From an uncultured Gammaproteobacteria bacterium (GTDB taxonomy: Bacteria; Patescibacteriota; Microgenomatia; UBA10105; UBA927), in assembly GCA_964527425.1 (NCBI GenBank), contig CAZGOA010000003.1:29941-93940 (forward strand): 64,000 nucleotides of DNA, given 5' to 3'. The translations under genes and the position numbers were made by a program. Shown piece after piece: positions 4,347-49,368 of this stretch. The notes under the pieces were generated by a model. The model saw only the letters and a list, made by a program, of their open reading frames with translations, was not told the origin of the DNA and ran no database searches. The stretch's first letter is position 1, and every line of letters starts with the position of its first letter.

Positions 4347-4391
4347 CTTCCGATCCGGGATCGGTAGCCTCATCCGATCCGGGGTCGGAAG
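4347..4391. repeat. palindromic interspersed repeat, module-2 type (CTTCCGATCCGGGATCGG-TAGCCTC-ATCCGATCCGGGGTCGGAAG)
   Basis: Self-complementary CCGATCCGGGATCGG core, shared with at least 8 other loci in the window. Confidence 0.8.
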
Positions 4392-4458
4392 AAACTAGCC
4401 TATAATATTTGTGTTATTCCTTATTTTTCGTTATACTATCTATCCCTATACACTATCT

Positions 4459-5505
4459 ATGAATGAACAAAAGTCATTTAAACCGGATAATTTAGAATTT
4501 CAGATGTATCTATCTCGATTCAGTAATGATCATCCAGGTGTACTGGAAACATTTTGGCGTGATCCTCTGTTTTTAGATCATGTAACTTCATTACATATTA
4601 ATCCTGAAGCTCTTTCAAAACTCCAGAGACATGAAGTTGCCGCGACATTGATTGCACCACCTAGAATGAGGGCGGCATTTATGCATGGACCTATGCGGGC
4701 AATCCTTAGTCGGGTTGATTATGAAGGATATAGTAAATACTTAACTGACTATGCTCAGAGTACAATTTCAGGACAACAGTCATTCACCCAATCAAGATTC
4801 AATAGTGATTCTTTGAAATTTGCTTTTCAAACGCTAAATCGATTAGTTGACCCCTTGGTGAATAGCTATGGACAGCCAGTCTCAGACCTTCTTAACAACG
4901 ATCCATATCTGAATGCCAGATTTCGACTCTATACAAACCTACAATACCCAGAGGATGTACTGCGGGATAGTTTTCAAACATCTTATACTACCTATCAAAC
5001 AATACTTGAACGCTGTATTACTCATGCAAACGGCAGTCATGAATTTTCTTATCTCCATGCATCTAGTAATAGGGTCCGAGAACTGGCACACATACGACTA
5101 TTAAAAATGACTGATATAGCTCAAATTGCCAAAGGTCTCACCAGAACCAGTAACGGATTTGTAACCCCAGAACTTGTTACTCAAAGACAGCTATATAAGT
5201 GTATAGAGCTAAAAGACGATCATTTCGGACTAACTCATTCAACGGTTCAGGAGCTTAACACTCACTTGCGAAACCATAACCGCAGTATGGGTGATCCTGA
5301 AGAAAACGAAGGGTATATTCCTGAACTAGGCACATCATCGGGTTGTCCATTTGGACATGAAGGAAGTCAGCAACCGAGATATTCAGATAATCCGCTCGAG
5401 GTACAATACCTTCCTGCTCATTTGCGTCAGGACATTGTTGAACCTATAGATATCATACATCAGTGGATTTGCTTACTGGCAGAAGCTTATAACCAACATA
5501 TATGA
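4459..5505 (+). CDS. hypothetical protein, paralog A of a tandem pair (C-terminal TSSGCPFGH motif)
   Basis: Long ORF with no recognisable family. Its stop overlaps the start of the next gene (ATGA). It shares the motif ...TSSGCPFGHEGSQQPRYSD with the downstream paralog. Start set at MNEQKSF; the track ORF begins at 4411. Confidence 0.5.
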   Translation: MNEQKSFKPDNLEFQMYLSRFSNDHPGVLETFWRDPLFLDHVTSLHINPEALSKLQRHEVAATLIAPPRMRAAFMHGPMRAILSRVDYEGYSKYLTDYAQSTISGQQSFTQSRFNSDSLKFAFQTLNRLVDPLVNSYGQPVSDLLNNDPYLNARFRLYTNLQYPEDVLRDSFQTSYTTYQTILERCITHANGSHEFSYLHASSNRVRELAHIRLLKMTDIAQIAKGLTRTSNGFVTPELVTQRQLYKCIELKDDHFGLTHSTVQELNTHLRNHNRSMGDPEENEGYIPELGTSSGCPFGHEGSQQPRYSDNPLEVQYLPAHLRQDIVEPIDIIHQWICLLAEAYNQHI

Positions 5506-6704
5506 GAGAAGTACTAACAAATAATCCAAATACTGACTATATCTCATTATTGATACAAGACGCAAAAGACCGTCCAGACGATTATCCCTGCAATGGAGTA
5601 CAAGATTATACTCACGATCTTCGAACGATAGCGGCGTCTATGCTGGCAGATACAAGACTTGGTATTGAAATTGTTCCATACGGAAACACCATTAGAGTCA
5701 CAGTGCAACATAACTTAGTCGGTGAGATTGAGGATATTCCTGATATCAACACTGTTGATGCACTTATGACTATATTAAAGACCCATTATGCACCGGATCA
5801 TCTAAGAGGAGATTTTCATAAAACTGTAACTAATCGTTTACTCAGACAGACTCATTTACCACAGATTACTCGTACTGATATTACCAGTTTGGAGAGTGAA
5901 GAACATGCTATTGAAATGGACTATCTTCCAGACTACTTAACTCAACCTCATCGCTTACTCAATGCACTGTTTGTTCGAGTTGAGCAAACAGAAAATATAC
6001 CTGAAATTTGGAATCGTATTATCAGCCCAGACATTCTCAAAAAAGAGCCGGTTATCGCATTCAGACTTTATCAGTATGCGTATTATAATTCGTTCGATAC
6101 AATTATTTCAGACGGTGTGATTGGACAGGTTAAAATTACTCGGGCACTGTTATTTAGCATTATTGAACGCCTCGATCGAACCAATCCCATATATTCACCA
6201 GATATTCCTACAGCGCTTCACGCTGCGCAGTATATTCTGCGAAGTAAAAATTTTATGCACATGATGTTTGAATTAACACAGATACCAAATGGACATCTGA
6301 TTCCAGGCATCCAACATCCGCTATTACCGGACAATAGATGGCAATACTTTACCTCTAGTCTCCGTATATCTGATGGGGATATTGCGTTTACCGATCAGTA
6401 CCGTGAAGAATTGGATCGGAATATAAAAACACATAATAATCGTTCAGGTACTCTTCCTGACACTTTACGCAATAAGCCATATACAGTGTTAGAAGCTGCA
6501 ACTACGTCAGGTTGCCCACTCGGTCACGGAGCACCCAGTAAACAAACGTTTTCTGATGACAGAAATAACATCGCTTTTTTCCCAGATAAAGCACTAACAT
6601 CTGTAAACAAACACCCGATTATTAGCCTTAATGATACGTTAATTGACCTGATTGACATGGTAATCACTGATAAAGAACTTCAACAATCATTATTAGCATC
6701 ATAG
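5502..6704 (+). CDS. hypothetical protein, paralog B of a tandem pair (C-terminal TTSGCPLGH motif)
   Basis: 400 aa ORF translationally coupled to the upstream gene. Conserved block EAATTSGCPLGHGAPSKQTFSD. Confidence 0.5.
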   Translation: MREVLTNNPNTDYISLLIQDAKDRPDDYPCNGVQDYTHDLRTIAASMLADTRLGIEIVPYGNTIRVTVQHNLVGEIEDIPDINTVDALMTILKTHYAPDHLRGDFHKTVTNRLLRQTHLPQITRTDITSLESEEHAIEMDYLPDYLTQPHRLLNALFVRVEQTENIPEIWNRIISPDILKKEPVIAFRLYQYAYYNSFDTIISDGVIGQVKITRALLFSIIERLDRTNPIYSPDIPTALHAAQYILRSKNFMHMMFELTQIPNGHLIPGIQHPLLPDNRWQYFTSSLRISDGDIAFTDQYREELDRNIKTHNNRSGTLPDTLRNKPYTVLEAATTSGCPLGHGAPSKQTFSDDRNNIAFFPDKALTSVNKHPIISLNDTLIDLIDMVITDKELQQSLLAS

Positions 6705-6741
6705 ATGCAGACAGACTATGGATATGCTATAACTAGAGTAT

Positions 6742-7479
6742 ATGAACTCAATAAAATCATATTTAGTTATTCCTGTAGTATTTTTTGCTTTATTGTTTGT
6801 TTATTCAAAAATTGGCGGTCCTATTCCGCTTTCTGTCAACAGTGTTGTCACACAAAAGATGGATGCATTCACGGTATCTGGCGAGGGTAAGGTAAGTATT
6901 TCTCCTGATATGGCTGTTGTGACTATTGGCGTGCAGACAACAGGCAATACTGTTAAAGCAACTCAAAATGATTTAAATCGTCGTATTAACGCTGTAAGTG
7001 AAGCAGTTAAGAGATTGGGTATTTCTGACGCTGACATTCAAACGAGTAACTATTCGATTTATCCAGACTATGATTTTCAAGCTCCTTTACAAAGAATAAC
7101 TGGATATAACGCATCGAGTAATTTGGTGATTAACATTAAAGATCTTGATAAAACGAACGACGTGATTGATGCCGCAACAGCTCAAGGTGCAAATAGCGTC
7201 AGTGGTGTCACTTTTGATGTTGAGGATAAAGAAAAAGCACAAAATGAAGCTCGGGAATTGGCAGTTACTGATGCAAAAAAGAAAGCACAGACAGCTGCAA
7301 ATATCGCAGGATTTTCACTTGGGAAAATTGTAAACTACTCAGAAAATTTTGGTGGGGGAGGCATTGGCCCGCTTCCATATATGGCACGTGATATTGCATT
7401 AGAATCAGTCAAAACAGACGTTCAACCAGGATCTCAGGAAATACTAGTCAATGTGTCATTGAGTTATGAGATACAGTAA
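6742..7479 (+). CDS. SIMPL-domain protein (DUF541; YggE/26 kDa periplasmic immunogenic protein-like)
   Basis: N-terminal signal/TM segment followed by a SIMPL-like domain (VSGEGKVSISPDMAVVTIGV...NYSIYPDYDF...DAKKKAQTAANIAG). Confidence 0.6.
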   Translation: MNSIKSYLVIPVVFFALLFVYSKIGGPIPLSVNSVVTQKMDAFTVSGEGKVSISPDMAVVTIGVQTTGNTVKATQNDLNRRINAVSEAVKRLGISDADIQTSNYSIYPDYDFQAPLQRITGYNASSNLVINIKDLDKTNDVIDAATAQGANSVSGVTFDVEDKEKAQNEARELAVTDAKKKAQTAANIAGFSLGKIVNYSENFGGGGIGPLPYMARDIALESVKTDVQPGSQEILVNVSLSYEIQ

Positions 7480-7487
7480 CTCGGAAA

Positions 7488-8426
7488 TTACTTACGGTGA
7501 AACTTCTGATGAATATCTCGAAGTTGGGGGTTGGTGACATGGGTGTAAATTTGGGTAGTTGAAACGTTTTTGTGACCTAACATTTCTTGAATAGCACGTA
7601 AGTCTGCTCCATTGTGAAGTAAATCTGTAGCATAACTGTGTCTGAGTCCATGAGGAGTTATTTTGATGGGTAGTTTTGCCTTTTTTACATACTTTTCTAC
7701 CATTCTCTGAACGCTTCTGGCAGATAGTCTTAAGGATTCACCATCTTTATCATCCGGATCGGGGGTTGGTCCGTTATATCGAATAAATAAGGCCTTAGAA
7801 TCATCTCTTCTGTTTGAAAGATAACGAGTAACCCACTCAACAGCTGAATCTGATAAAAAGACAACTCGTGCCCTTCTTCCTTTTCCTATAACGCCAAATT
7901 CTTTCCGTTCAAAATTGATTTGATCTCTATTCAAACTCACTAATTCTGAAACACGAAGTCCTGTTGAGAACAATAATTCCAGTATCGCTTTATCTCTTAG
8001 TCCTTCTTCTTCTGATAGAGAAGGCATATTCAGCAGTCGATCAACATCACTTCGTTCTAAAAATTTTATACTTCTGCTTTCAGCTTTGGCTAGATCAATT
8101 TTCTCTGGATGGACTGTTTCGACATCCCGTTTCATCATATATTTAAGAAAAGATCTGACAGCTATTAAATGGTAATTTTGGGTAACTCTTTTTAAACTTA
8201 AGCCTTTTTCATCGACATAACGCGATAAAAATAATCGGTATTCACGAATCCGATCTGCTGTGAGATGACTAACCTGTAGTTGTTCGGGAGAGGAGGGGAG
8301 AGTCTGAGCTAAAAATCCTATAAGTCGAGATAAATAATGATGGTAATTACGAACGGTTAGTTGAGAAACATTTCGTTCAATTTCGAGGTATTCTAAAAAC
8401 TGTTTAACTGCTTCTGTTAATGGCAT
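7488..8426 (-). CDS. tyrosine site-specific recombinase, XerC/XerD family
   Basis: C-terminal catalytic box HGLRHSYATDLLHNGADLRAIQEMLGHKNVSTTQIYTHV (R..H..R..Y). Confidence 0.8.
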   Translation of the reverse strand: MPLTEAVKQFLEYLEIERNVSQLTVRNYHHYLSRLIGFLAQTLPSSPEQLQVSHLTADRIREYRLFLSRYVDEKGLSLKRVTQNYHLIAVRSFLKYMMKRDVETVHPEKIDLAKAESRSIKFLERSDVDRLLNMPSLSEEEGLRDKAILELLFSTGLRVSELVSLNRDQINFERKEFGVIGKGRRARVVFLSDSAVEWVTRYLSNRRDDSKALFIRYNGPTPDPDDKDGESLRLSARSVQRMVEKYVKKAKLPIKITPHGLRHSYATDLLHNGADLRAIQEMLGHKNVSTTQIYTHVTNPQLRDIHQKFHRK

Positions 8427-8485
8427 TATTTATAATGTGCGACATCTGGATAGAAAAATCAAGTCTTAGGTGTAATTTTTTTATG

Positions 8486-9094
8486 TTACTCAATAGTCCA
8501 AATGACAGGACGTTTGCGAGCATATTCAACTTCGTATCGTTTATATTGACTAAATTTAGTGTATGGCCAAATAGATACCTTTTTATCTACATAGTTCCCA
8601 TGAATAAGGAGTGGTTCTTTATGTTCATCATATTGTAAAAAGAGTGCGAGATGAGGACCTGGATACTGTAATTTTAAAGCTCTTTCTAATGCATCATTTC
8701 CTCGTATCTCATTTGGAATAGCCCGAAATTCTTTAATATTAGCCTGAGCAAAAAAGAATATATCTCCTAGCTGTAAGGGTTCATCTACCAATAAAGGACG
8801 TACATAGGGATTGGGTAAAATCATATGAACTGGATCGAGGGTAGGGGGCAGTTTATACGTAAATAATCTCTCTAATAAATAGTGAACTACATACACACAA
8901 TTCACTTCTGTTTGACCTTTTAGATAATATGGAACCTGATCGGGACTTTGGTGATAGTTATACGGCGCTCCCATTATTTCTTGTATGGCGTGATGTTGAG
9001 AAGTTTCGTGATTGAAAAAAGTTGTCTCCTTTAGAATGCTGTTAACTATACTAAATGTATATTTTTCTGACAACCCAAGAACCAGATGACGCAT
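8486..9094 (-). CDS. NlpC/P60-like (C40 papain-fold) hydrolase, no signal peptide
   Basis: Pattern NCVYVVHYLL...LQLGDIFFF...HLALFLQYDEHKEPLLIHGN resembles the Cys...GDL-FF...H-G-Y...H core of NlpC/P60. The track start at 9121 is an artefact of the adjacent repeat (MNVCIRDR encoded by repeat DNA), so the start is moved to MRHLVLG. Confidence 0.4.
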   Translation of the reverse strand: MRHLVLGLSEKYTFSIVNSILKETTFFNHETSQHHAIQEIMGAPYNYHQSPDQVPYYLKGQTEVNCVYVVHYLLERLFTYKLPPTLDPVHMILPNPYVRPLLVDEPLQLGDIFFFAQANIKEFRAIPNEIRGNDALERALKLQYPGPHLALFLQYDEHKEPLLIHGNYVDKKVSIWPYTKFSQYKRYEVEYARKRPVIWTIE

Positions 9095-9097
9095 AGT

Positions 9098-9296
9098 TCG
9101 ATCCCGGATGCAGACATTCATCCGATCCCGGATCGAGGTAAGATCTCCTTAAAGTTAGTTCATCTCGATCCGGGATGCAGACATTCGTCCGATCCCGGAT
9201 CGGAGTAAGATCTCCATAAAGTTAATTCATCTCGATCCGGGATGCAGACATTCGTCCGATCCCGGATCGGTAGCCTCTTCCGATCCCGGATCGGAA
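9098..9296. repeat. tandem array: 3 x ~65 bp units (39 nt hairpin module plus 26 nt near-identical linker) ending in the TAGCCTC plus module-2 palindrome
   Basis: TTCGATCCCGGATGCAGACATTCATCCGATCCCGGATCGAGGTAAGATCTCCTTAAAGTTAGTTCA, followed by TCTCGATCCGGGATGCAGACATTCGTCCGATCCCGGATCGGAGTAAGATCTCCATAAAGTTAATTCA, followed by a third copy, then TAGCCTCTTCCGATCCCGGATCGGAA. Confidence 0.85.
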
Positions 9297-9322
9297 TAAT
9301 CAAGATCTGATACACTAAAGAT

Positions 9323-10639
9323 ATGCCTGCCTATACCAGTAAACTTGTTGATCCTGGCGTGTGTATTGTATTTGCCTATGCTCCTGCTGGATTGGGTCAC
9401 TTACGAGTGACTGATGCGCTGTATCATGGTCTACCTCAGGAATGCGATCCAATGCTTTTGCCTGATACTGCTGTGTCTGTTAAGACTCTCCATAGGTTGA
9501 CAAGTAGTAATCCTTTTGCAAAGCGTTTTTTTGAATGGTCTCAGCAAGGAGTACCAGAAACGATTATTACGAGAATATATCGTTTCATGCTTCATCAGGA
9601 TGCCCGTTTCATGCAGAAACGATTATTAGAGTTATTAAAACAACGAATTCAATTACCTCATACATTGGTTATTGTAGCCACTCATTATGGTATTGCTCAC
9701 CAGGTATCTGTAATAAAAAAAGATCTAGAACGTTTAGGAAATGTTCGAGTGTTGCTCGTTGTTCAAGTAACAGATGATAGTCCTCAGAAACTCTGGTACG
9801 TACCACATGCCGATTTACTCTGTGTGCCAAGTGAATTTACATATACATCACTACAGACATATGGTAGATTGGAACATTTAGGCAAAAGTCGAATTGTTAT
9901 TCTTCCATATCCTGTGAGTCCACGCCTATTACAACCACGTTCTCAGCAAGATATGGACTTAGCGATGCATCAAACTGATCCGTTAAGTCAGGTGCTTATT
10001 CATACGGTAATCCCAATATCAGGTGCTGCAGTCGGAATACCATATTTGAGAAAATTGATGCATAAACTTCATACATTAGAACCCAGAATGCGATTTCATA
10101 TTATTGTAAAACGCTCAATATTTACCCTATCTGCAATCCGATCCTGGAAACGAAAAGGATATATGTATGTATATGAATCTCGTTCTGATAGAGAGATTAT
10201 TGATCTATATGAACGTGTATATGAGCAGGAAAAAATTGTATTGGAGATAACTAAACCATCTGAACAGTCATTTAAAGCACTTATTCCGCCCAACAGGCAA
10301 GGGGGGAGTATTTTACTTTTTGCACCTCCTGTTGGAAGACAGGAGTATGATAATGTAAGTTTTTTACAGCGTAATGGGTTAATCCCGTCTGGTGAGGAAT
10401 ATAGACAATTGTGCGACGTCTTGAATTTAGAACAAAATAGACCTATTCCATTACCCATATCCCATTGGCGCGGGTTTAGACTTTCTGATGATCCAGTCAT
10501 TGCAGCTAAATGGATAAGTCGTGCATTAACATTTAGGATTTTTCAGTCTATGATTTCTGGGAAAGAACATAAACGCTCAGATGAAGTGAGTCCTGAGGGT
10601 GTTGAGGAATTCTGGAAGCAAGTGGTGTCGTTGTTATAA
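9323..10639 (+). CDS. GT-B glycosyltransferase, MGDG-synthase/UgtP-like (GT28-related)
   Basis: N-terminal APAGLGHLRVTDAL resembles the GGGH..AA.AL motif of MGDG/diglucosyl-DAG synthases. LWYVPHADLLCVPSE resembles the GT28 C-terminal region. Confidence 0.45.
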   Translation: MPAYTSKLVDPGVCIVFAYAPAGLGHLRVTDALYHGLPQECDPMLLPDTAVSVKTLHRLTSSNPFAKRFFEWSQQGVPETIITRIYRFMLHQDARFMQKRLLELLKQRIQLPHTLVIVATHYGIAHQVSVIKKDLERLGNVRVLLVVQVTDDSPQKLWYVPHADLLCVPSEFTYTSLQTYGRLEHLGKSRIVILPYPVSPRLLQPRSQQDMDLAMHQTDPLSQVLIHTVIPISGAAVGIPYLRKLMHKLHTLEPRMRFHIIVKRSIFTLSAIRSWKRKGYMYVYESRSDREIIDLYERVYEQEKIVLEITKPSEQSFKALIPPNRQGGSILLFAPPVGRQEYDNVSFLQRNGLIPSGEEYRQLCDVLNLEQNRPIPLPISHWRGFRLSDDPVIAAKWISRALTFRIFQSMISGKEHKRSDEVSPEGVEEFWKQVVSLL

Positions 10640-10900
10640 ATATTTTTTAAAAAATATTTGAAAAAAATAATTGTAAATTGTTTTTTTAGTCCTTTTGCCC
10701 GCCAAAAGGACTAAAAGCTCGTGAGCAGGTGAAAGAAGAATGATTTTTTCTCTCTCATTCGTTGGGAGACATGCTTCCCTCGCCAACACTAAAGGTTGGC
10801 CTCTCCCAACACTCATTCGTTCGAAAAACTCTATCATTCTTCTTTCAACGCTCACACTCAGTAAAATTATTATGATATATAAATCTGATATACTTTTGAG

Positions 10901-11812
10901 ATGACTCTTGGTATTAAGGTTGGGCCTCAGAAACAAAGTTTTAATGATCTGGAGCTTACACAAGCTCCATTTTGTGAAGTTTGGTATAACATCTGTAAAA
11001 AAGATGATTACACTGATTTATTTGAGATTGTAAAACGTCGAAATATGGAGGTTGGTCTTCATTTCTGGGGGCATTTAGACGATCAGACCTGGACAAATAT
11101 TGCTTACCCCGATAGTCGTGTCATTTCTGAGTCAATGGCTTTAATGAAAGAAACAATCGACATTGCTGCGACGCATCATTTTCAATATGTAAATATTCAT
11201 CCGAGTAACTATGCCTTATCAAAAATAGATTTTGAAAAACAATCATTTGAACTGTTAACGCCACCTGCACCTGATTCTGTCTGTGAGCAAACCTTTTTTG
11301 AACATCTTACGGCACTCAATACGCATGCTCACAATCGTGGTGTTGTTTTACTTATTGAAACGGTTCCACATTTAGATACGAATGGCTGGCGTGGAACTAG
11401 TCCCAGACTTAGACCTATTAACTTATATGCACCTGACAATTCACTTATCGTGAAAGCCTCTACAATGGGTTTCACGATCGCAAATGACTTCGGGCATACC
11501 AGTTGTACTGTGCAATCTGATAACCGGTCTATTATTTGGCAGCATCTTAATCGTATGACTCATCAATTATTTAACCAAACTCGTTTACTGCATCTTGCAT
11601 ATATTATTCCGCCATATAATGGCACTGATTATCATTCACATCTTGATGCAGATCAGTTTGAATCAGAACTGGCAGTACCGAATAAACAGGAATTAATACA
11701 ACTCCTACATCTCTTTAAAGACCGATCTGATGTCTGGGCTTTAGTTGAACCTGATGGCAGACATGTAGAAAACTATTTCTATGCTAAGAAACTTCTTGAT
11801 TTGGTCGAATAA
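10901..11812 (+). CDS. sugar phosphate isomerase/epimerase-like TIM-barrel protein (xylose isomerase-like fold)
   Basis: GLHFWGHL...YVNIHP...VLLIETVP...DFGHT pattern of AP-endonuclease-2/xylose-isomerase-like TIM barrels. Confidence 0.45.
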   Translation: MTLGIKVGPQKQSFNDLELTQAPFCEVWYNICKKDDYTDLFEIVKRRNMEVGLHFWGHLDDQTWTNIAYPDSRVISESMALMKETIDIAATHHFQYVNIHPSNYALSKIDFEKQSFELLTPPAPDSVCEQTFFEHLTALNTHAHNRGVVLLIETVPHLDTNGWRGTSPRLRPINLYAPDNSLIVKASTMGFTIANDFGHTSCTVQSDNRSIIWQHLNRMTHQLFNQTRLLHLAYIIPPYNGTDYHSHLDADQFESELAVPNKQELIQLLHLFKDRSDVWALVEPDGRHVENYFYAKKLLDLVE

Positions 11813-12832
11813 ACTCTTATTTCATCGTTTAGCTTGTCAGAATAATCTAATTCTGTATTTTTCACGCAAGAGCAGAGGTAACTTGAATCTGTTTAAAGCT
11901 AATACTGACGGTTTATGGCAGATATGATGATTTGAGTTCAAACAGAGCATAAAGCAGAAATACAAAAAGTACTGGTAATTAGAAATAAATAGACAAATAC
12001 CATACAAATAGGTACTGGAAGAAAGAGTTAAAATGAAACCTCTCTTGAGGCTAAATATCAATGTAGCGTCGCAAAAGTATTATTGTCCGACGTATATAGC
12101 TAGCTCACCTTGCCCTCAAAAATGAACACTTTTTGACCTTTATGAAAGTATATGATCAAACATAGATATTCTTGTTATTATGATTCTTCCCAAAGAACCT
12201 CATATACACTCTTTGCCTCCATATCATCTAATAGTAATCACGTAGAAAACACCATGCGTTCAAAAGCTAGTCAATAAGGCGGTGAGTGCTTGCGTCTAAT
12301 CTCAAGTGAGTGACAGCAATGTACAGGTAACTTACCTTTTAATTGCGGGGCAAAAGATTTTTGAGTAGGCAATTTTTGAGACACTTACAGATCGCTGGAA
12401 ACTGCTACTTTAGTCTGCATAAGCAATTCATATTTAGAGCGTTGCAACAGTCTAAATGACACTTTTTGAGGCTGTTTTACAACAAATTGGAACAATACGC
12501 TCTTTCGGGTTTTCTTAGATAGTTGAAATTTCATTGTTCTATCAATCTATTTGACACTTTTTGAGGCTATGATATATAAAAATGAATACATTCTGTTTCT
12601 TTTGAGGGGACATTTAGCAGTAAGGGTGTCGGGTTGATAAATTCTCCCTCACTACGCTCGAGAATAGATTAAATTGTGTAAATGATGAACTCAATACACT
12701 CAAATCAGGTCCTATAACATCGTGAAAACTTTATTAAATTTTCGTGAAAACTTATCCACATTAATATTATAGGCTTATAGTATAACTGTATCATACTATA
12801 TCATCTACTCCTCTCTCCTACTTCTTTTGAAC

Positions 12833-13669
12833 TTAAATAATGCCGTACCAGTTTGTTGTAATCACAAAGATAATCCCCACTATTATGGATACGCTTGCAA
12901 ATTCTATGACGGTCTTTTTATACATACGTTCTACGAGAAATTGTTGGGCCAATCCAGTAACACTATAAAAAATCGTTGTGATCAATAGAGCCTTTATTGA
13001 AGTTTTTACGGGCCAAAACGATAAAACCCATGCAAACTGCGTGAAAAGTACGGTTAATGCAGCAGTTAAATGATACAATCTACTACTCGCCTTTTCTGAT
13101 AATTCAATCGCCCACAAAATTTGAAACACTAACGGAGCACTAAGAAGCATTACCATTACTGTAGTAAACAGAGCATGCTCTCGTAGAGCAAATACTGTGG
13201 AAAGTAACAAAAAATAGGTAATGAGTGTTAGAAGAAACCCAACAGTATGTGCGGCTCTCAATAAGGCAATAGAGCGTTCTGCAGCCACGTTATATATATT
13301 TTCGGTAAGAAGTAACGCATACATTCCTAATATGTATAACGACGCAATTGGAATTCGGGTAATCCATCGAGTTGGGAGTAAAAAATAAAATAGTGTAACT
13401 GCTGCAGTAAACAACGTGGGTAGTGTTAAGAGAGTAACAAATTCTATGCCTTTTAAGTCACGGCGCAGGACAATTGCACTTCCAATGTATGTTAGAACAG
13501 ATAATACAATTGTCATTTGATAGCGATATTCTGGTATTAATTGTGTAAGAATAAGTCCTGCAGTCAGTATAAGACAAACAACCACAAATTCTTGGCGCTT
13601 GGTTAGACCAATGCTCCAGTCTTTAAACTGTATTAAGCTTAATCTTCGTCTCAAACGTATAAATCTCAT
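12833..13669 (-). CDS. hypothetical polytopic membrane protein
   Basis: 278 aa with at least 7 predicted hydrophobic helices and no recognisable motif. Confidence 0.5.
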   Translation of the reverse strand: MRFIRLRRRLSLIQFKDWSIGLTKRQEFVVVCLILTAGLILTQLIPEYRYQMTIVLSVLTYIGSAIVLRRDLKGIEFVTLLTLPTLFTAAVTLFYFLLPTRWITRIPIASLYILGMYALLLTENIYNVAAERSIALLRAAHTVGFLLTLITYFLLLSTVFALREHALFTTVMVMLLSAPLVFQILWAIELSEKASSRLYHLTAALTVLFTQFAWVLSFWPVKTSIKALLITTIFYSVTGLAQQFLVERMYKKTVIEFASVSIIVGIIFVITTNWYGII

Positions 13670-13741
13670 ACATTCTTTCGGATATCTCTCGATTATACAT
13701 GCTTGTTGCTAGATCTAAAAATATGCATGCTTATACACGTG

Positions 13742-14461
13742 TTAACTATTGGTGTAGACTCGCTGAACATCATCCAACTCTTGTAATAAATCAACAATCG
13801 TCTCTATCTTTGTTTGCGTAGATTCGGTAATTTGAATTGGGATTGTTGGGATAAACATTATCTCAGATGAGTCTACTGGAATTGTTCTTGCTTGAAGTTG
13901 ATGCAGAATTGTTTCGAATTGCTCTACCTCACTGATAACCTCAACTTCATTGTCGTAAAACGAAACGTCGCTAGCACCTATTTCGATAAGATAATCTAAT
14001 AGCTCATCATCTGTAAGAGATAGCGGTCTTTTAATGAGAATGATTCCAACTTTTTTAAATTGAAAGGCAACTGAACCTGGTGTCGCAAGACTACCTTCAT
14101 GATGATCAAATATATTTTTTATCTGTGACACAGTACGAGTTTTGTTCTCTGTGGCTGCTTCTATGAGAAATGCCACCCCTTGGGGCCCATACGCCTCATA
14201 CACTAACGATTCCATTTGGTCTTGCCCTCCCCCTTTCCCTTTTGCGATGGCGCGATCAATATTGTCTTTAGGCATGTTTACTTCTTTTGCTTTTTCGATA
14301 GCGAGTCGCAGTTTAAAGTTACTTTGTGGATCAGTTATGCCACCCCCTTCTTTCACTGCAATAGTAATACCCCGACTTGCTCGGGTAAAGGCTTTTGCTT
14401 TAACCACATCAGTTACTGCTTTTTGATGTTTTACTTTTGACCATTTTGAATGACCTGCCAT
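13742..14461 (-). CDS. YebC/PmpR family DNA-binding transcriptional regulator
   Basis: MAGHSKWSKVKHQKAVTDVVKAKAFTRASRGITIAVKEGGG...RAIAKGKGG is the YebC signature. The start is moved to the MAGHSKW Met. Confidence 0.85.
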   Translation of the reverse strand: MAGHSKWSKVKHQKAVTDVVKAKAFTRASRGITIAVKEGGGITDPQSNFKLRLAIEKAKEVNMPKDNIDRAIAKGKGGGQDQMESLVYEAYGPQGVAFLIEAATENKTRTVSQIKNIFDHHEGSLATPGSVAFQFKKVGIILIKRPLSLTDDELLDYLIEIGASDVSFYDNEVEVISEVEQFETILHQLQARTIPVDSSEIMFIPTIPIQITESTQTKIETIVDLLQELDDVQRVYTNS

Positions 14462-14567
14462 ATAATAAAATATATACTGTACAACCAATTCAGTTTTGTC
14501 TTGTTAATACTTGGTATTTTACTCGCTATATTGACTTTTCACAATAAAATCCATACACTCGATTCTC

Positions 14568-15272
14568 ATGAACGGAACGCCTGCAACCGCAGATAAAGCT
14601 ATTCAAGCAGCTCTCAATCAACAATGGGATTTAGCTGTAGAGTGCAATAACGCACTTCTCTCACTCAACGAACATGATATTGACGCCCTCAACAGGATTG
14701 GATTTGCATATATACATTTAGGAAAGCAAAAACAGGCAAAAGAAGTATTTGAAAAAGTATTAACTCTCGATAAATACAACCAAATCGCTCAGAGGAATCT
14801 TACCAAATTAAAAAATAAAGGAAATGTTGAGGTAAATGGAACGGTTGCCTCCCCTCTTATGTTTCTTGAAGAACCCGGTAAAACAAAAGTTGTGGCCTGT
14901 GTAAAACTTGCTCCGGCTGCAACTCTTGCTGCTGTTCGCTGCGGTCAAGAAGTTCATATGAAAGTGAAAAAACATACCATTGAAATACGAGATGATGAAC
15001 AGGTATATCTTGCTGCTCTTCCAGATGATATGTCTTTTAAGTTAAGCCGTTTAATTGATGGCGGAAACCAGTACGTATTGATCGTACGATCTGTTGGTAA
15101 GAATTCACTGAGTGTATTTATACGGGAAACTGTACGAGGCAAAAAGTTTGTCAATCAACCATCGTTTACCCCGACTTCTACTTATGTCCCAACGACTCGA
15201 GCTGAGGATCAAACGGAAAAGCCGGATACTTCTACAACGGGCGAAGAAGAACAAGAAAGTGGTAATGAGTAA
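14568..15272 (+). CDS. hypothetical protein with N-terminal TPR-like repeat and acidic S/T-rich tail
   Basis: LNRIGFAYIHLGKQKQAKEVFEKVLTLDKYNQIAQRNL is TPR-like. No other match. Confidence 0.4.
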   Translation: MNGTPATADKAIQAALNQQWDLAVECNNALLSLNEHDIDALNRIGFAYIHLGKQKQAKEVFEKVLTLDKYNQIAQRNLTKLKNKGNVEVNGTVASPLMFLEEPGKTKVVACVKLAPAATLAAVRCGQEVHMKVKKHTIEIRDDEQVYLAALPDDMSFKLSRLIDGGNQYVLIVRSVGKNSLSVFIRETVRGKKFVNQPSFTPTSTYVPTTRAEDQTEKPDTSTTGEEEQESGNE

Positions 15273-15284
15273 AAACGAAGTTTT

Positions 15285-16268
15285 TTAGTTAGTAATAAAT
15301 CGATCCGCAAAGGTTTTTCCTACTCGAATGGTTAAGTCTGCTTGCTGTTCCTCTTGAATTGTTTCATACTCACATTCAAAAAGAGACATGATACGTTTTG
15401 ATGTTATGCTATCCAGAGATTCTTGATTTCCTGTCATTACACACCCTAGAACTTGTGAATCAGTATCGTTCCCTACTGCAACGACATTAGCGCCTAATTT
15501 GCCAATCATGCGACCCACACGCGCACCGACTGCAGGAGTATTTGTTGTATTATACACTGCTACTCTCAGTGCTTCTTTTCTAACCTGCAATTCTTCAAAC
15601 GCATCCTGAGTACGAATATCAAAGGCTTGTCTGTCGAAACGCAAAAACCACGCACCATCAGGTCCTGTTTGTCTTACGAGTCCGCTACCTTCCTTAATTA
15701 TATATCGTTCAACTCGTTGCGGTTCCATATTTCTAATGCGCCACCATAGTCGTAAGTAGTCAGGAAAGGACATATTTGTATCAAACTTTTTTGTAAGAAA
15801 TGGCACCACATTCGTAAGGGTAATCGTTTCCTGAAGAATTGATATGGGGCCTGACCATTGGGCAAAATCACTTGTACTCGGTACTATGTAATATGGTATA
15901 TGAACTCCTAATTCCTCTGCAAAACTTTCTCTTAGTATGGCAGAAGGGCTGGATTCTGATTTTCCCAGTTGCCATAACGCATCAAGTCGATATTCACCAA
16001 GACCAAATACTCCACTGATATGCGCATCTTTTGTCATTTGGATAATAGTCCAAAAATTTCTGTTTTCATCATAGGAAACAACTTCTACCGGATCGCTTAT
16101 GGTCATAATAGTAAATCTTCCATTTTCAAATGGTTGACGAGCCAATAGCCATATTCCAATCCCTAACAAGCCTATAATCAAAAAGATAATAAAGAGAAAG
16201 CGAACAATTGGAGGAGTATAACGATCTTTACTTCGGGCAGAGGACATAACCTTTATCGTATCAGCCAT
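15285..16268 (-). CDS. membrane-anchored protein with LytR_C-like C-terminal domain
   Basis: One N-terminal TM helix. The C-terminal LRVAVYNTTNTPAVGARVGRMIGKLGANVVAVGN...DLTIRVG resembles the LytR_C domain. Confidence 0.4.
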   Translation of the reverse strand: MADTIKVMSSARSKDRYTPPIVRFLFIIFLIIGLLGIGIWLLARQPFENGRFTIMTISDPVEVVSYDENRNFWTIIQMTKDAHISGVFGLGEYRLDALWQLGKSESSPSAILRESFAEELGVHIPYYIVPSTSDFAQWSGPISILQETITLTNVVPFLTKKFDTNMSFPDYLRLWWRIRNMEPQRVERYIIKEGSGLVRQTGPDGAWFLRFDRQAFDIRTQDAFEELQVRKEALRVAVYNTTNTPAVGARVGRMIGKLGANVVAVGNDTDSQVLGCVMTGNQESLDSITSKRIMSLFECEYETIQEEQQADLTIRVGKTFADRFITN

Positions 16269-17428
16269 TGATGCTCTAACTCAAGGAGTGTTCCTTGTTC
16301 TATCGAGGTATGTATATCCCTTACAAGCCTGTGTAAGAAATACAGATTATGGATTGTTGCCAGTCTATAGGCAAGCAGTTCTCTGACTGAAAATAGATGG
16401 TGCAGGTATGCTTTTGAGTACGTGTTACATACGTAACACTGACAAGTCGTATCAATAGATGATGAATCGGCTTTGTGTGCGGCATTGGTAATATCAATCC
16501 ACCACTTCCCTTTTTGCTTTTGTCGGGTGTAAACGTAGCCACTACGTGCAAGTCGGGTTGCCTGAACACAGTCAAATGTATCTACTCCTGATTTTACTGC
16601 CTGAAAGATATCATCAATTTCACCTACTCCTAATAAATGTCTTGGTTTTTCTTTGGGAAGTATAGGTAAAACCCAGTTAAGCACGTTATACATATCTTGC
16701 TTGCTTTCTCCCACTGATACCCCACCTATAGCAATACCATCTGTATCGAGTTGAGAAATAAATTCTGCTGACTGTTTTCTTAAGTCTTCATAAATACTAC
16801 CTTGTATGGACCCGTACAATGCCTGATAAAGCCCCGTTGACTTATGCGCAAGTAGTCTATGAGCAGATACACTTCTTTGTGCCCAACGATGCGTTCGTTC
16901 CATTGAAGATGTTGCTTCCTCTTTCGTCACTCCATTTGGCGTACAATCATCAAATGCAATATGAATATCGCTTCCTAATTCCCACTGATATTGCATAGAA
17001 ACCTCTGGAGTAAAATCATGATAACTACCGTCCCAATGAGAACGAAACTTTACCCCTTCTTCTGATATGTTTACTAAATTTGGCTGTCCGTCATCTTTTT
17101 CTGCTTTGTGATTATTTGCTAGAGAAAATACCTGAAATCCTCCACTATCAGTAATGATAGGACCATTCCAACTCATGAACGTATGCAGTCCTCCCATTGT
17201 TTTAACTAATTCTATTCCTGGGCGCATAGCCATATGGTAGGTATTCACAAAAAACATTTGAGTTCCTACTTTTTGAATTTCTTCTGGTGTTAAAGATTTA
17301 ACTGTCGCCTGCGTTCCTACAGGAATAAACGCTGGTGTTTGAATATCTCCATGTGGAGTATGGATAACTCCTAAACGAGCATTTGTTTTTGTATCTTTGT
17401 GAATTTCAGTAAAGGAAAATGTGTTCAT
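16253..17428 (-). CDS. tgt: queuine tRNA-ribosyltransferase
   Basis: TPAFIPVGTQATVKSL...VNTYHMAMRPG...ITDSGGFQV...GGVSVGE plus C-terminal Zn-binding CxCxxC...H. Confidence 0.9.
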   Translation of the reverse strand: MNTFSFTEIHKDTKTNARLGVIHTPHGDIQTPAFIPVGTQATVKSLTPEEIQKVGTQMFFVNTYHMAMRPGIELVKTMGGLHTFMSWNGPIITDSGGFQVFSLANNHKAEKDDGQPNLVNISEEGVKFRSHWDGSYHDFTPEVSMQYQWELGSDIHIAFDDCTPNGVTKEEATSSMERTHRWAQRSVSAHRLLAHKSTGLYQALYGSIQGSIYEDLRKQSAEFISQLDTDGIAIGGVSVGESKQDMYNVLNWVLPILPKEKPRHLLGVGEIDDIFQAVKSGVDTFDCVQATRLARSGYVYTRQKQKGKWWIDITNAAHKADSSSIDTTCQCYVCNTYSKAYLHHLFSVRELLAYRLATIHNLYFLHRLVRDIHTSIEQGTLLELEHQWLIR

Positions 17429-17539
17429 ATACTGCGTTTAAAAGGTATGTATTGTAGTAATATTTCAGGTTTTAGAAACTATTATTGAAAACATTGTAAA
17501 ATTTGGGCATGGTCCTGTATCATCTGGACCAACATATCA

Positions 17540-19471: not shown

Positions 19472-19482
19472 AATTCCTTTTT

Positions 19483-20880: not shown

Positions 20881-20923
20881 TTCGATCCGGGATGCAGACA
20901 TCCGTTGAGATCCCGGATCGGAA
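20881..20923. repeat. solo hairpin module of the palindromic repeat family (TTCGATCCGGGATGCAGACATCCGTTGAGATCCCGGATCGG)
   Basis: Sequence identity to the repeat consensus. Lies immediately upstream of the MFS gene. Confidence 0.8.
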
Positions 20924-21012
20924 TGTTGCCCAGATAAGGTACGCTTCGGATCAGGTGTACTGTGTTTGATCAGGATATGCTTTTTTGTTGTTTCTGTTTA
21001 GAATAGATATAT

Positions 21013-21574: not shown

Positions 21575-21652
21575 TTCGATCCGGGATGCAGAAATACTTC
21601 CGATCCCGGATCGGGTGAGGCTACCGAAATTCTTCCGATCCGGGATCGGAAT
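21575..21652. repeat. composite repeat: hairpin module plus linker plus module-2 palindrome
   Basis: TTCGATCCGGGATGCAGAAATACTTCCGATCCCGGATCGG-GTGAGGCTACCGAAATT-CTTCCGATCCGGGATCGGAA. Overlaps the last ~11 codons of the minus-strand ORF 21621..22325. Confidence 0.8.
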
Positions 21653-24431: not shown

Positions 24432-24482
24432 ATGAGGTTCATTCTATCATAAAACAATAATTCCAATGAATTATATACTTCA

Positions 24483-24518
24483 ATCGGGATGGAGACATCC
24501 GTTCCGATCCCGGATCGG
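24483..24518. repeat. degenerate solo hairpin module (ATCGGGATGGAGACATCCGTTCCGATCCCGGATCGG)
   Basis: Matches the repeat consensus. Lies between tRNA-Leu and dnaB. Confidence 0.7.
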
Positions 24519-24541
24519 TGGAATAATGTAGGTTGCGGGCG

Positions 24542-37871: not shown

Positions 37872-37891
37872 TTCGATCCCGGGATCGGAAG
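37872..37891. repeat. module-2 palindrome (TTCGATCCCGGGATCGGAAG)
   Basis: Perfect palindrome between the convergent prfA-like and htrA genes. Confidence 0.75.
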
Positions 37892-37904
37892 AAGAGTTTA
37901 TTGT

Positions 37905-39086: not shown

Positions 39087-39232
39087 ATATCTCCTTTCGA
39101 CAGTTAGTCTTGAAGATTCTGTATCAGAATTATGTATCTCGTTTCTTATTTTTACAAGGGTTATCTGAAAATTTGCTGAAATGTATTGTATTGTAAGTTT
39201 ATTAAAGCACGGTGTGTAAATCAACCTGATCT

Positions 39233-39428
39233 CTCGATGCAGAAATACTTCAGACCCTGGATCGGTTTAGGCTTCATCTCGATCCGGGATGCAGACATTC
39301 GTCCGATCCCGGATCGGTATAGGCTTCTCGGTGTTTGAATGCATAATTCGATCCCGGATGCAGACGTCCGTCCGATCCGGGATCGGTATAGGCTGTATAG
39401 GCTCGACTCTTCCGATCCGGGATCGGTA
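39233..39428. repeat. array of 3 hairpin modules (one degenerate) with GTATAGGCT-type linkers, ending in a module-2 palindrome
   Basis: CTCGATGCAGAAATACTTCAGACCCTGGATCGG...TCTCGATCCGGGATGCAGACATTCGTCCGATCCCGGATCGG...TTCGATCCCGGATGCAGACGTCCGTCCGATCCGGGATCGG...CTTCCGATCCGGGATCGGTAG. Confidence 0.85.
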
Positions 39429-39435
39429 GATATGT

Positions 39436-46954: not shown

Positions 46955-47021
46955 TTAGGAGTAAATCAGTTTCTGTATCATTTTTACTGTAGAAAAAGGA
47001 GGTTTAGAAGCAACAAAAACA

Positions 47022-47195
47022 ATAAGAGCGTGTGGTCCGTCTTCTTAGACGGAATACGAGGAAAGGGCCCCTATGGGGAATCGAACCCAAGATAAACTCT
47101 TGGAGAATCAGCGGAAACCCTTCGGTTGTAACGTACAATCGTGACAAATGACTAAAATCTTTCTGGTAACAGATTGGACAAAGGTTTTTTGAATA
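47022..47195 (+). ncRNA. structured 5' leader of glmS; candidate glmS ribozyme/riboswitch
   Basis: Five perfect or near-perfect hairpins (CCGUCU-ucuu-AGACGG, CCCC-uau-GGGG, GGG-aaucgaa-CCC, CCAAGA-uaaac-UCUUGG, GUUGUA-acg-UACAAU). ACGAGGAAAGGG plus the downstream CCCUUCGG resembles the glmS-ribozyme GACGAGGAGGAGG...CCUCC pseudoknot. GGACAAAGG resembles the conserved UGAACAAAG. Confidence 0.3.
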
Positions 47196-47322
47196 CGTTT
47201 GCTTCTTTATACTACTCATTACTACGATTTATCTTTAACGTATCTTGGAAGAATAATTGCTCAATTACTGCGTCCTAACATGAGGAATGTAATTATTCTG
47301 CAAGATACTCGACTTTACCTAT

Positions 47323-49101
47323 ATGTGTGGAATATTTGGATATGTTGGTCCTAAAACAAATGCTGCAAATGTAATCCTGAAAGGGTTGAAAACGCTTGAG
47401 TATAGAGGGTATGACTCCTGGGGTGTTGCTGTGGTTCCAAAAGACCCGAAAAAGCAGCATATTATGCTCAAAAAAAAGTCAGGGAAAATTGGTGATGCAA
47501 CGGTAACAGATTTGCCTGCTTCATCTTTTGGATTTGGCCATACTCGATGGGCTACGCATGGGGGTGTCACAGATGTAAATGCTCATCCTCATGTGGATTG
47601 TACGAAAAAAATCGCCATTATTCATAATGGAATCGTTGAAAATTATGAACAGCTAAAAGAAAAATTATCAAAAAAAGGTCATACATTTTCTTCTGAAACT
47701 GATACAGAAGTGATTGTCCACTTGATTGAGGAATATGCAAAAAAAACAATGTTTAGTAAAGCGGTACAAAAAGCCTTTAATGAATTGGTAGGATTAAATG
47801 CAATTATTGCTATTAATACTATTGACCAGGTTTTTGTTGCTGCGCGTAATGGATCCCCCTTGGTGATTGGATTTGGTGAGGATGAAAATTTTTTGGCGAG
47901 TGATGCTGCTGCAATTATTCCGTACACAAAGCAGGTTCACTACTTAGAAGATGGTGAAATGGCTCTGGTAGGAAAAAGTGGAGTTTCTATTTTTGAAGCC
48001 AAAACTGGCAAAAATATTCATCCGAAAAAACAACTCTTAACATGGACTGTTGCACAAGCAGAAAAAGGGAGATATCCATTTTTCATGTTAAAAGAAATTC
48101 ATGAACAACCTGGGATATTGGTTGATATAGCAACTAATAGTGTAAATCACGCAGAACATTTAGCCAATGCTATTAAACATTCATTTGGTGGATATTTAAT
48201 TGGCTGTGGGACTGCTGCTTTTGCATGTATTGCTGGCACATATTTATTTTCCAAAATTGCTAAGCGACATATGAACTGGGCTATAGGGAGTGAATTCCCC
48301 TATTCTCAAGATTTTTTGACGGGAAAAAGCTTAGTGATTGCTTTGTCTCAGTCAGGCGAAACCATGGACACCATTGAGGCTGTAAAGCAGGCTAAACAGA
48401 AAGGGGCAACCTTGGTTGCGATGGTAAATGTTTTGGGATCAACGCTGTACCGTATGGCGGATCACAAAATATTGCTTTCTGCTGGTCCAGAAAAAGGTGT
48501 TGCCTCTACAAAAGCGTTTACTGCCAAACTTGGTCATTTGTTATTACTTGCTACTGCGCTTGATAATAATGTCTCCTACGGAAAAACGTTAGTACTACAT
48601 GCGGCAAAAGCAACTCAAAAGATATTAAGAAAGGAGAATCGAGCAAAAATTGAGGAACTAGCTAACAAGATTATGAAGACTCCTCATATATATGTTGTAG
48701 GAAGGGGTCTTTCCTACCCTGCTTCTCTTGAAACAGCTCTGAAGATAAAAGAAATTTCTTATATTCATGCTGAAGGGTTAGCGGGTGGTGAGTTAAAACA
48801 TGGGGCTTTAGCGTTAGTTGAGAAAGGAACACCCTGTATTGTGATTGCACCACCTGATGAAACATATCAAGATACGCTGGCTGGGGCAATGGAAATGAAA
48901 GCGAGAGGTGGATATATTATTGGTCTTTCTAATAAACCACATGATGTGTTTGATTATTACTTACCTGTTCCGTATGTGCAGGAGGCAACTATTATTCCCA
49001 ATATTGTGACAGCACAATTATTGGCATATTACTTAACCATTCATAAAGGATTTGACCCTGATAAACCAAGGAATTTGGCTAAGAGTGTGACGGTAAAGTG
49101 A
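47323..49101 (+). CDS. glmS: glutamine--fructose-6-phosphate aminotransferase
   Basis: N-terminal MCGIFGYVG (Ntn Cys) followed by two SIS domains. Confidence 0.9.
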   Translation: MCGIFGYVGPKTNAANVILKGLKTLEYRGYDSWGVAVVPKDPKKQHIMLKKKSGKIGDATVTDLPASSFGFGHTRWATHGGVTDVNAHPHVDCTKKIAIIHNGIVENYEQLKEKLSKKGHTFSSETDTEVIVHLIEEYAKKTMFSKAVQKAFNELVGLNAIIAINTIDQVFVAARNGSPLVIGFGEDENFLASDAAAIIPYTKQVHYLEDGEMALVGKSGVSIFEAKTGKNIHPKKQLLTWTVAQAEKGRYPFFMLKEIHEQPGILVDIATNSVNHAEHLANAIKHSFGGYLIGCGTAAFACIAGTYLFSKIAKRHMNWAIGSEFPYSQDFLTGKSLVIALSQSGETMDTIEAVKQAKQKGATLVAMVNVLGSTLYRMADHKILLSAGPEKGVASTKAFTAKLGHLLLLATALDNNVSYGKTLVLHAAKATQKILRKENRAKIEELANKIMKTPHIYVVGRGLSYPASLETALKIKEISYIHAEGLAGGELKHGALALVEKGTPCIVIAPPDETYQDTLAGAMEMKARGGYIIGLSNKPHDVFDYYLPVPYVQEATIIPNIVTAQLLAYYLTIHKGFDPDKPRNLAKSVTVK

Positions 49102-49347
49102 GGATCTGTGCAGACAGTTTATCTTGATTAACCCGGTTTTTTTGTGTATTACGATCCGGGATGCAGACATTCGTCCGATCCCGGATCGGTGGAAGGATTA
49201 TCTGATAAACCAAGGAATTTGGCTAAAAGTGTGACGGTAAAGTGAAGATGTATAGGTACGGTTTATCTTGATTGTTCCGGTTTTTGATTATCACGATCCG
49301 GGATGCAGACATTCGTTGAGATTCAGGATCGGTAGCCTCAGCCTCTT
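49060..49347 (+). repeat. 2 x 144 bp tandem direct duplication of the glmS 3' end plus downstream hairpin module
   Basis: GATAAACCAAGGAATTTGGCTAA(G/A)AGTGTGACGGTAAAGTGA...TTTATCTTGATT...CGATCCGGGATGCAGACATTCG occurs twice, at 49060 and 49204. The second copy retains an out-of-context ...DKPRNLAKSVTVK stop remnant. Confidence 0.7.
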
Positions 49348-49368
49348 TCTTCCGATCCCGGATCGGAA
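49295..49368. repeat. hairpin module (degenerate right arm) plus TAGCCTC linker plus module-2 palindrome
   Basis: CGATCCGGGATGCAGACATTCGTTGAGATTCAGGATCGG-TAGCCTCAGCCTCTTT-CTTCCGATCCCGGATCGGAA. Confidence 0.8.

Follow-up and report, generated by a model that had tools for sequence, protein, structure and literature searches.

The window analysed here, the whole 64,000-nt stretch of contig CAZGOA010000003.1 between positions 29,941 and 93,940, comes from a Gottesmanbacteria-like bacterium of the candidate phyla radiation (CPR); the best GyrA matches (76% identity) were to metagenome-assembled genomes (MAGs) labelled Candidatus Gottesmanbacteria, Microgenomates or Patescibacteria, with genomes of ~1 Mb. 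The window is 87.6% genic and 12.4% intergenic, and carries a family of short palindromic repeats in nine clusters, which occupy 8 of its 52 intergenic regions (the clusters at 49151 and 49293 share one region). The initial annotation of this DNA had reported such a family at no fewer than nine intergenic loci; the family proved real, non-random and placed as reported, with nine clusters where shuffled sequences predict none, while the figure of nine applies to clusters only.

The repeats are built on a 15-nt palindromic core, CCGATCC-S-GGATCGG (hereafter P). Module 1, the 39-nt stem-bulge-stem hairpin TCGATCCGGGATGCAGACATTCGTCCGATCCCGGATCGG, is made of two P lying 24 nt apart, and its 3' arm, taken with two bases on either side, is again P, which also forms the core of the 21-nt module 2. 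The two modules, originally described as separate, are one core in differing contexts, module 2 being the palindrome of the 3' arm of module 1. Nor is module 2 the perfect palindrome that it had been taken for: no copy is exact, the best ones have one mismatch, and the palindrome is of odd length, its central C/G being free. The spacer between P cores was either GCAGACATTCGT, which gives module 1, or of a TAGCCTC type, and the cores were spaced by exactly 24 nt in 10 of 11 doublets and triplets. In a pattern search of the window, module 1 was found as exact copies at 9165, 9232 and 39279, and at up to three mismatches in six places (additionally 9098, 21576 and 49151), against an expectation of 0 from shuffles. 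A profile made from nine copies raised the number of module-1 copies to 11 (starts at 9095, 9162, 9229, 20880, 21574, 24483, 39236, 39276, 39345, 49147 and 49290); in both searches all matches were on the + strand. The module-2 consensus gave 21 strand-matches at up to three mismatches (0 expected from shuffles), and the core GATCCSGGATC gave 25 matches at up to one mismatch (0.34 expected), one of which, at 3577 within folD, was a chance one-mismatch match, leaving 24 cores. Many copies, for example those at 24480, 39227 and 49319, were in decay.

The cluster at 4347..4391, between folD and the next gene, is a P-TAGCCTCA-P doublet of no defined strand, with cores 24 nt apart and a predicted fold of -17.7 kcal/mol (z = -4.85). 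The largest array (9098..9297, + strand) fills a divergent intergenic region with module-1 hairpins at 9098, 9165 and 9232, that is, with a period of 67 nt; 28-nt linkers that are near-identical to each other follow units 1 and 2, and the array is closed by TAGCCTC and a module 2 (9277-9297). Module 1 stands alone as a variant with the loop GCAGACATCCGTTGA in a second divergent region (20882..20924, + strand), and, between dnaB and tRNA-Leu(CAA), as a copy whose 5' arm has degenerated (24480..24521, + strand). The composite at 21576..21652 (+ strand) consists of a module-1 variant with a GAA/TTC inner stem, a linker holding an inverted GAGGCTA fragment, and module 2. Between two convergent genes at 37872..37892 lies a solo even-length palindrome, TCGATCCCGGGATCGGAAG, again of no defined strand, which matched the profile weakly and in a comparison of the repeat family shared its 5' flank with 39331-39357. 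The array at 39227..39429 (+ strand) holds a degenerate module 1 (39227), a canonical one (39279) and one with a swapped central pair C...G (39348), together with TATAGGCT-type linkers and a module 2 at 39409-39429. Two clusters were located 3' of glmS (49046..49369, + strand), the first being a module 1 (49151-49189) and the second a module-1 variant followed by TAGCCTC(AGCCTC) and module 2 (49293-49369). This site contains a tandem duplication of ~144 nt, comprising the last ~55 nt of glmS, the downstream spacer and module 1, as a result of which 49058-49141 is repeated at 49202-49285 with 86% identity. The order module 1, linker, P was common to 9232, 21576 and 49293, and none of the nine clusters was flanked by a direct duplication. 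The glmS gene itself (47323-49101) is preceded by a glmS ribozyme (Rfam RF00234, 54.8 bits) at 47016-47201 on the + strand.

All cores were intergenic save the one at 21632-21652, at the end of a gene, in agreement with the original description of the copies as intergenic or at gene termini, and the 56 kb of coding sequence contained no copies. Occupied intergenic regions were longer than unoccupied ones (median length 183 nt and 54 nt, respectively), and repeats were present at 5 of 25 convergent or divergent junctions compared with 3 of 43 tandem junctions; the repeats thus mostly favour operon boundaries. Six of the eight occupied regions are downstream of at least one gene, the other two (9098 and 20882) being purely divergent promoter regions. 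At 21632-21652, module 2 forms the last ~10 residues (YSDPGSEEFR) of the protein encoded on the minus strand at 21621-22307. In a repeat-free relative (L101) the same protein ends in LFSS and the two convergent genes overlap; in the window, one protein C-terminus has been rewritten by the repeat. The overlaps of the starts of open reading frames (ORFs) 8486-9121 and 19483-20901 with repeats were ORF-calling artefacts, judging from orthologues of 428 aa and from an in-frame Met at 9094, just outside the repeat.

Folded as DNA, module 1 had an outer stem of 11 bp and an inner stem of 3 bp, separated by a small internal loop and capped by a tetraloop (-13.7 kcal/mol, z = -3.9), which confirmed the 11-bp stem reported earlier and added the inner stem within it. 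The composites folded with z-scores of -3.5 to -4.9, except for the decayed composite at 49290-49372 (z = -1.65). Across 10 distinct copies, 90.6% of cells were paired, and three changes were two-sided: a G-C to C-G swap at the centre of the outer stem (39348) and C-G to A-T replacements in the inner stem (21576 and 39227). The compensatory score was matched or exceeded by only 8 of 500 shuffles, and the copy in the sister lineage L088 likewise has a GAA...TTC inner stem. Because the inner stem lies outside the palindrome, these compensatory changes favour an intrastrand fold over recognition of the duplex. Complementary centres, which would make module 1 a REPIN (a doublet of inverted repetitive extragenic palindromes) in miniature, were present in 8 of 9 intact module-1 copies, while between the 3' arm of module 1 and module 2 the centre was complementary in one of four loci with intact cores. 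Folding of the whole 20882 and 21576 intergenic regions yielded no convincing stem outside the known units. All 11 module-1 copies, representing six independent loci, were on the + strand whatever the direction of the flanking genes. With the coding-strand effect removed, the + strand showed a third-codon-position GC skew of ~+0.11, and, being G-rich, it is probably the leading strand across the whole region.

The ~22-kb gyrA loci of 80 relatives contained neither the P core nor module 1, and the 24 closest among them held no analogous repeat family. Searches with the module-1 pattern gave nothing in 185,579 GTDB species representatives or in IMG/VR, and the single match in JGI metagenomes (L087) was an unrelated GGATCC-rich contig of eukaryotic appearance. 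A 16-nt core gave only single matches per contig in IMG/VR, consistent with chance, with no phage or plasmid link. No Rfam family was detected at the repeats at the gathering threshold, nor anywhere in 9000-13000 at an E-value threshold. A further cluster is located just upstream of tyrS, ~21 kb before the window, and every contig begins inside it; the family therefore reaches beyond the window rather than being confined to it. Copies were absent from the 19.6 kb preceding the window (~24 kb when counted back from 4347) and from the 2.3 kb following it (~17 kb when counted on from 49369). In all, nine occupied regions were distributed over ~88 kb of contiguous sequence, a patchy ~1 per 10 kb, which suggests ~100 loci per Mb if the sampled region is representative. 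The earlier figure of hundreds of copies genome-wide was an extrapolation from a higher density; its implication that copies also occur outside the window stood.

Logan assemblies from more than 20 runs contained the same species, with repeats in identical positions between unique flanks, and their contigs ended inside canonical copies (L001-L003, for instance, end in the 9098 array); extension outward from the window came to a halt at canonical copies that these contigs did not span. Three lineages were found to hold the family: the window species, L165/L167 (run SRR7051042 for L165; 91-97% nucleotide identity) and L088/L180 (run SRR31740698 for L088; 79-88%). With related genomes and databases searched, the mosaic, lineage-restricted and extragenic character proposed from the window alone was borne out.

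Comparison with relatives shows that repeats were gained at some sites. The 243-nt region that holds the 20882 copy in the window corresponds to a 52-nt intergenic region without a core in L097, and the site of the 21576 composite to overlapping genes without a repeat in L101. These are empty sites, although the window has more additional DNA there than can be recognised as repeat. More distant relatives, in which the loci compared had no P core, encode a protein 74-87% identical to the 159-aa product of 21013-21492. In L165 the 24480 copy is identical to that of the window, and the mosaic at the 21576 site has the linker TAGCCTCAT in place of the inverted GAGGCTA fragment; inverted pieces were in all cases short linker fragments only (21613; L170). 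Repeats are also present in L180 and L088 at the orthologues of the 4347, 9098 and glmS sites. The 4347 site of L180 has the P-doublet architecture of the window, its 9098 site has a degenerate module 1 in a different mosaic, differing at 6 of 39 positions (15%), and the arrangement at the glmS site of L088 also differs from that in the window. Within the window, no difference separates the copies at 9165, 9232 and 39279, and the one at 49151 departs from them at 1 nt. Such identity across loci, set against 15% divergence between orthologues, implies that old insertions have been homogenised, replaced or selected. That canonical copies stay identical points to continuing copying or gene conversion. 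The arrays grew through the 67-nt and 144-nt tandem duplications, and the clusters evolve locally, by tandem duplication, by inversion or replacement of linkers, and by decay. In a strain 2% diverged, the three repeat loci spanned (~165 nt) carried no substitutions and the 24480 copy was identical. Other hairpin repeats were seen in relatives without P: L097 has, at 3440-3560 by a tRNA-Leu, the palindrome TCCCGACGTTCGTCGGGA and a ~45-nt hairpin (AACCGGCAGT...ACTGTCCGGTT), and L100 has the palindrome ATCCCGATTTTCATCGGGAT (4950-4983) at a contig end. Turnover of hairpin repeats seems to be fast in this clade.

The family was compared with the known classes of bacterial repeats. It resembles the repetitive extragenic palindromes (REPs) of Enterobacteria and Pseudomonas, which a REP-associated tyrosine transposase (RAYT, TnpA-REP) mobilises, and the bacterial interspersed mosaic elements (BIMEs) made from them, in consisting of imperfect palindromes of 35-40 nt that are extragenic, limited to a narrow lineage and present singly or in mosaics with few linkers, the number of tandem units varying between related lineages. 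The basic description of a 30-40-nt extragenic imperfect palindrome in many copies applied (a 39-nt hairpin, 11 copies; 24 cores). It differs from REPs in that the 3' arm of module 1 is by itself a full palindrome, and in its host, a ~1-Mb CPR genome, with no RAYT found in ~86 kb. The BIME interpretation of the initial annotation failed on the features examined, with direct units and no 5' GT[AG]G, as did the interpretation as miniature inverted-repeat transposable elements (MITEs): the 11-nt arms of module 1 could pass as terminal inverted repeats, yet there were no target-site duplications, and no parent IS came to light in the sequence covered. A likeness to the REPINs of Pseudomonas fluorescens may lie in the copied unit, apparently a doublet of inverted short sequences forming one hairpin, with singlets that look like remnants; the present unit is 39 nt rather than roughly 100 nt, and no associated single-copy RAYT was identified. 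The subterminal hairpins of IS200/IS605 and of their non-autonomous derivatives, the palindrome-associated transposable elements (PATEs), share with it a bulged hairpin, the lack of target-site duplication and an orientation bias related to replication, but have distinct left and right ends, a conserved target tetranucleotide and nearby tnpA/tnpB, none of which was seen here. Neisseria dRS3/RS repeats and Correia MITEs may offer a further parallel, as mosaics in which a ~20-nt palindromic repeat alternates with few short segments, at ~1 locus per 10 kb in a small genome; their sequences are unrelated, and the TA duplication and 26-bp terminal inverted repeats of those elements are missing. Rickettsia palindromic elements are also hairpin repeats that have proliferated in a reduced genome, and the one copy serving as a protein C-terminus recalls them; they are, however, 100-150 nt long and typically in frame within genes, as opposed to 20-40 nt and extragenic.

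Other candidates were rejected. A clustered regularly interspaced short palindromic repeat (CRISPR) array is contradicted by the near-identity of the 28-nt "spacers" and by the lack of cas domains in Pfam searches. The hairpins are not intrinsic terminators: there is no T-tract, a terminator scan of window positions 1-20000 (covering the 4347 and 9098 clusters) was silent, and two loci lie in divergent promoter regions. A DNA uptake sequence or uptake signal sequence (DUS/USS) motif does not agree with clustered copies that avoid all 56 kb of coding sequence. GATC and related sites were neither avoided nor enriched outside the repeats, contrary to an involvement of restriction-modification or Dam. 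On the features tested, the family is REP-like in behaviour and falls outside the BIME, MITE, CRISPR, terminator and DUS classes.

The reading preferred here, with a probability of roughly 0.55, is that of a non-autonomous family of REP-like hairpin repeats, confined to a narrow lineage of a CPR host, the copies of which would spread as a folded single strand at the replication fork, with the copying done by a trans-acting enzyme presumably encoded elsewhere in the genome. That enzyme would most plausibly be a Y1 HUH protein (RAYT/IS200-like), an assignment by analogy that we offer tentatively and with considerable doubt. Single-stranded hairpins are the substrates of IS200/IS605 and of E. coli TnpA(REP), and a preference of IS200/IS605 for the lagging-strand template is on record (PMC3333891, PMC6006769). 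Y1 HUH enzymes (RAYT, TnpA of IS200/IS605) are the known class that uses such substrates without target duplications. Single-strand spread through such an enzyme would account for both the uniform orientation of the hairpins and the missing target-site duplications.

Several observations weigh against this proposal. No Y1/RAYT or other transposase was found by Pfam scans and Pfam annotation of ~86 kb (the window and its flanks), extending the earlier remark that none is encoded in the window, and a crude HUH motif scan of 22 ORFs without a Pfam domain likewise found nothing. The guide tetranucleotide GT[AG]G, which in REPs is found immediately 5' of the hairpin foot (PMC3333891, PMC6006769), was not conserved there, the 5' flanks being A/T-rich and variable (ATCT, AGTT, GTTT, TTTT, AATT, ATTA, ATCA); in 4 of 11 copies GTAG or GTGG was instead located on the 3' side of the hairpin. 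Asymmetric units follow one another in direct tandem, all on the + strand, rather than in the REP/iREP alternation of BIMEs, while the linker motifs TAGCCTC and GAGGCTA are present in both orientations. With six loci the strand bias is no more than suggestive (two-sided p of ~0.03), and the leading-strand assignment derives from a weak skew. Finally, no insertion polymorphism was seen between strains 2% apart, so that recent mobility lacks support of that kind. The only recombinase gene is that of a XerC/D-like tyrosine recombinase (7488-8426). An integron or Xer site was rejected as an explanation, the recombinase adjoining SIMPL in the sister lineage too, with no repeats between them, and the repeats being scattered among housekeeping genes.

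One rival involves a second repeat family, E2, of ~150-200 nt (window 10671-10877, + strand; L097 1988-2189 and 2-130). E2 starts with a terminator-like hairpin (TTTTTTTAGTCCTTTTG...CAAAAGGACTAAAAG), followed by a long hairpin with inverted arms of ~25 nt (GTGAGCAGGTGAAAGAAGAATGAT / ATCATTCTTCTTTCAACGCTCAC) and an apical hairpin that shows compensatory changes between copies. Without an Rfam match, it has the appearance of a MITE or possibly of a small RNA, and since the contig of a 98% strain (L089) ends inside E2, as coordinate arithmetic indicates, it is probably multi-copy. If the repeats derived from E2 as a larger long-hairpin MITE, module 1 with its 28-nt linker would descend from the E2 apex, and a DDE transposase recognising terminal inverted repeats would be, or would once have been, the mover. 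The copies of E2 in the window and L097 are homologous (E = 1e-60 and 2e-32), the long hairpin is very stable as DNA (-45.5 kcal/mol, z = -9.65), and the L180 copy at the 9098 site aligns colinearly with the core and 3' part of E2 (GGGA..GACAT..TCC..ATCGGG..AATCCCCC..GTTCTCT); the linker GTGAAAATCCCCCCCAAATTTGTTCTCT at L180 4981-5084, compared with E2 and with window 9098-9231, resembles the 3' part of the E2 core. This connection runs through one intermediate copy, with nhmmer E-values of 0.0015 to 0.04 in a tiny search space, and the E2 profile matched no module-1 copy of the window. The module-1 and P copies have no E2 arms, their longer flanks form no extended hairpin, and neither target-site duplications nor a transposase accompanied them, all of which makes an origin from E2 unlikely. 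An assembly artefact, with an Illumina adapter built into the contig, was suggested by the 9-11 nt (CTCTTCCGATC / GATCGGAAGA) that module 2 shares with the 3' end of the TruSeq adapter (GCTCTTCCGATCT / AGATCGGAAGAGC). Adapter-like stretches occur in the window at 9275 and 39407 (CTCTTCCGATC) and at 21631, 49348, 37883 and 4347. The match never exceeds 11 nt, and module 1 does not resemble the adapter; the loci recur with unique flanks in assemblies of more than 20 independent runs, the sister-lineage orthologues carry substitutions and rearrangements, and one copy is read as a protein C-terminus. An artefact is barely conceivable, and the repeats are genuine genomic DNA.

Selection by the host would provide another origin, the P arrays then being operator- or centromere-like sites bound by a dimeric nucleoid, partition or global regulator protein. 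As an inverted repeat, P has the usual size of a site bound by a dimer, and both the exact 24-nt spacing (10 of 11 doublets and triplets) and the patchy regional distribution would fit, as would the absence of substitutions over ~165 nt of repeat in a strain 2% diverged overall. Chromosomal sites of this kind, such as parS, matS and the Noc-binding sites (NBS), also lie inside genes, unlike the present repeats; copies are moreover absent from orthologous sites in close relatives, arrangements differ between sister lineages, many copies are decaying (24480, 39227, 49319), and the compensatory changes of the inner stem fit an intrastrand fold and not duplex recognition. We consider binding sites improbable. 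A similar standing is given to the possibility of a strand-polarised CPR chromosomal signal, in which 24-nt-phased palindrome arrays would be co-oriented with replication and kept identical by the host, or else of hairpin-templated copying without a dedicated transposase; if the signal reading is true, the role might be lagging-strand or fork processing, or chromosome organisation. A role mainly in RNA, as terminators, sites of RNase processing or stabilisers of mRNA 3' ends, would agree with the stable hairpins and with the six of eight occupied regions that are downstream of at least one gene, and E. coli REPs do stabilise upstream mRNA. It is quite improbable given that the hairpins are not followed by T-tracts, that the terminator scan of 1-20000 called none, and that the 9098 and 20882 regions are purely divergent promoters; furthermore, the fixed + orientation irrespective of flanking genes means that transcripts would carry either strand, and in relatives the corresponding gene ends carry no repeats. 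A complete type IV pilus cluster adjoins the window, just upstream, and the repeats could be uptake sequences for this competence machinery, the core being short, over-represented and in inverted pairs, as DUS of Neisseria often are. Such a function is very hard to reconcile with an absence from 56 kb of coding sequence, with tandem clusters with linkers at ~1 per 10 kb instead of ~1 per kb, and with an asymmetric, strand-biased hairpin.

CPR genomes of ~1 Mb are regarded as streamlined and repeat-poor, and the literature searched contained nothing relevant on REP-like repeats, RAYTs, REPINs, MITEs or palindromic and intergenic repeats in CPR/Patescibacteria. The present lineage holds at least two hairpin repeat families, which turn over among species with 80-97% nucleotide identity. 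On the REP-like reading, an ultra-small genome contains non-autonomous elements that still are, or recently were, active, and its hairpin repeats appear to be homogenised across loci. The canonical copies fragment short-read assemblies, and adapter trimmers may clip true reads at module 2, adding to assembly breaks, so that such families may be systematically under-represented in CPR MAGs. The repeats could also serve as strain-typing markers.

Some further features were observed outside the repeats. The sister lineages differ from the window in gene content: in L165 (2833-4814 and 9625-9879) genes for an SNase, a glyoxalase and a CPDase are added and the SET-domain gene is replaced by an 84-aa gene, while L088 (3145-7328) has an extra 1016-aa protein without a Pfam domain and a PhoU-like gene between tmk and the HD-domain gene. 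The 1 kb at 11813-12832 is devoid of ORFs of at least 80 aa and contains a 49-nt direct repeat (12441-12489 and 12536-12584, 73% identity); apart from a spurious snoRNA it gave no Rfam match at E-values up to 1. Two adjacent genes to which no function was assigned (4459-5505 and 5502-6704) have a common C-terminal motif, TSSGCP[FL]GH. The product of 5502-6704 had two matches among 5.8 billion clustered proteins, namely itself and a 63%-identical orthologue from the sister lineage, and is a fast-evolving orphan. Within the minus-strand gene 49732-50523, the protein of which has no Pfam domain, a low-complexity repeat with a period of 18 nt (50302-50389) encodes a charged repeat of the KENKER type.

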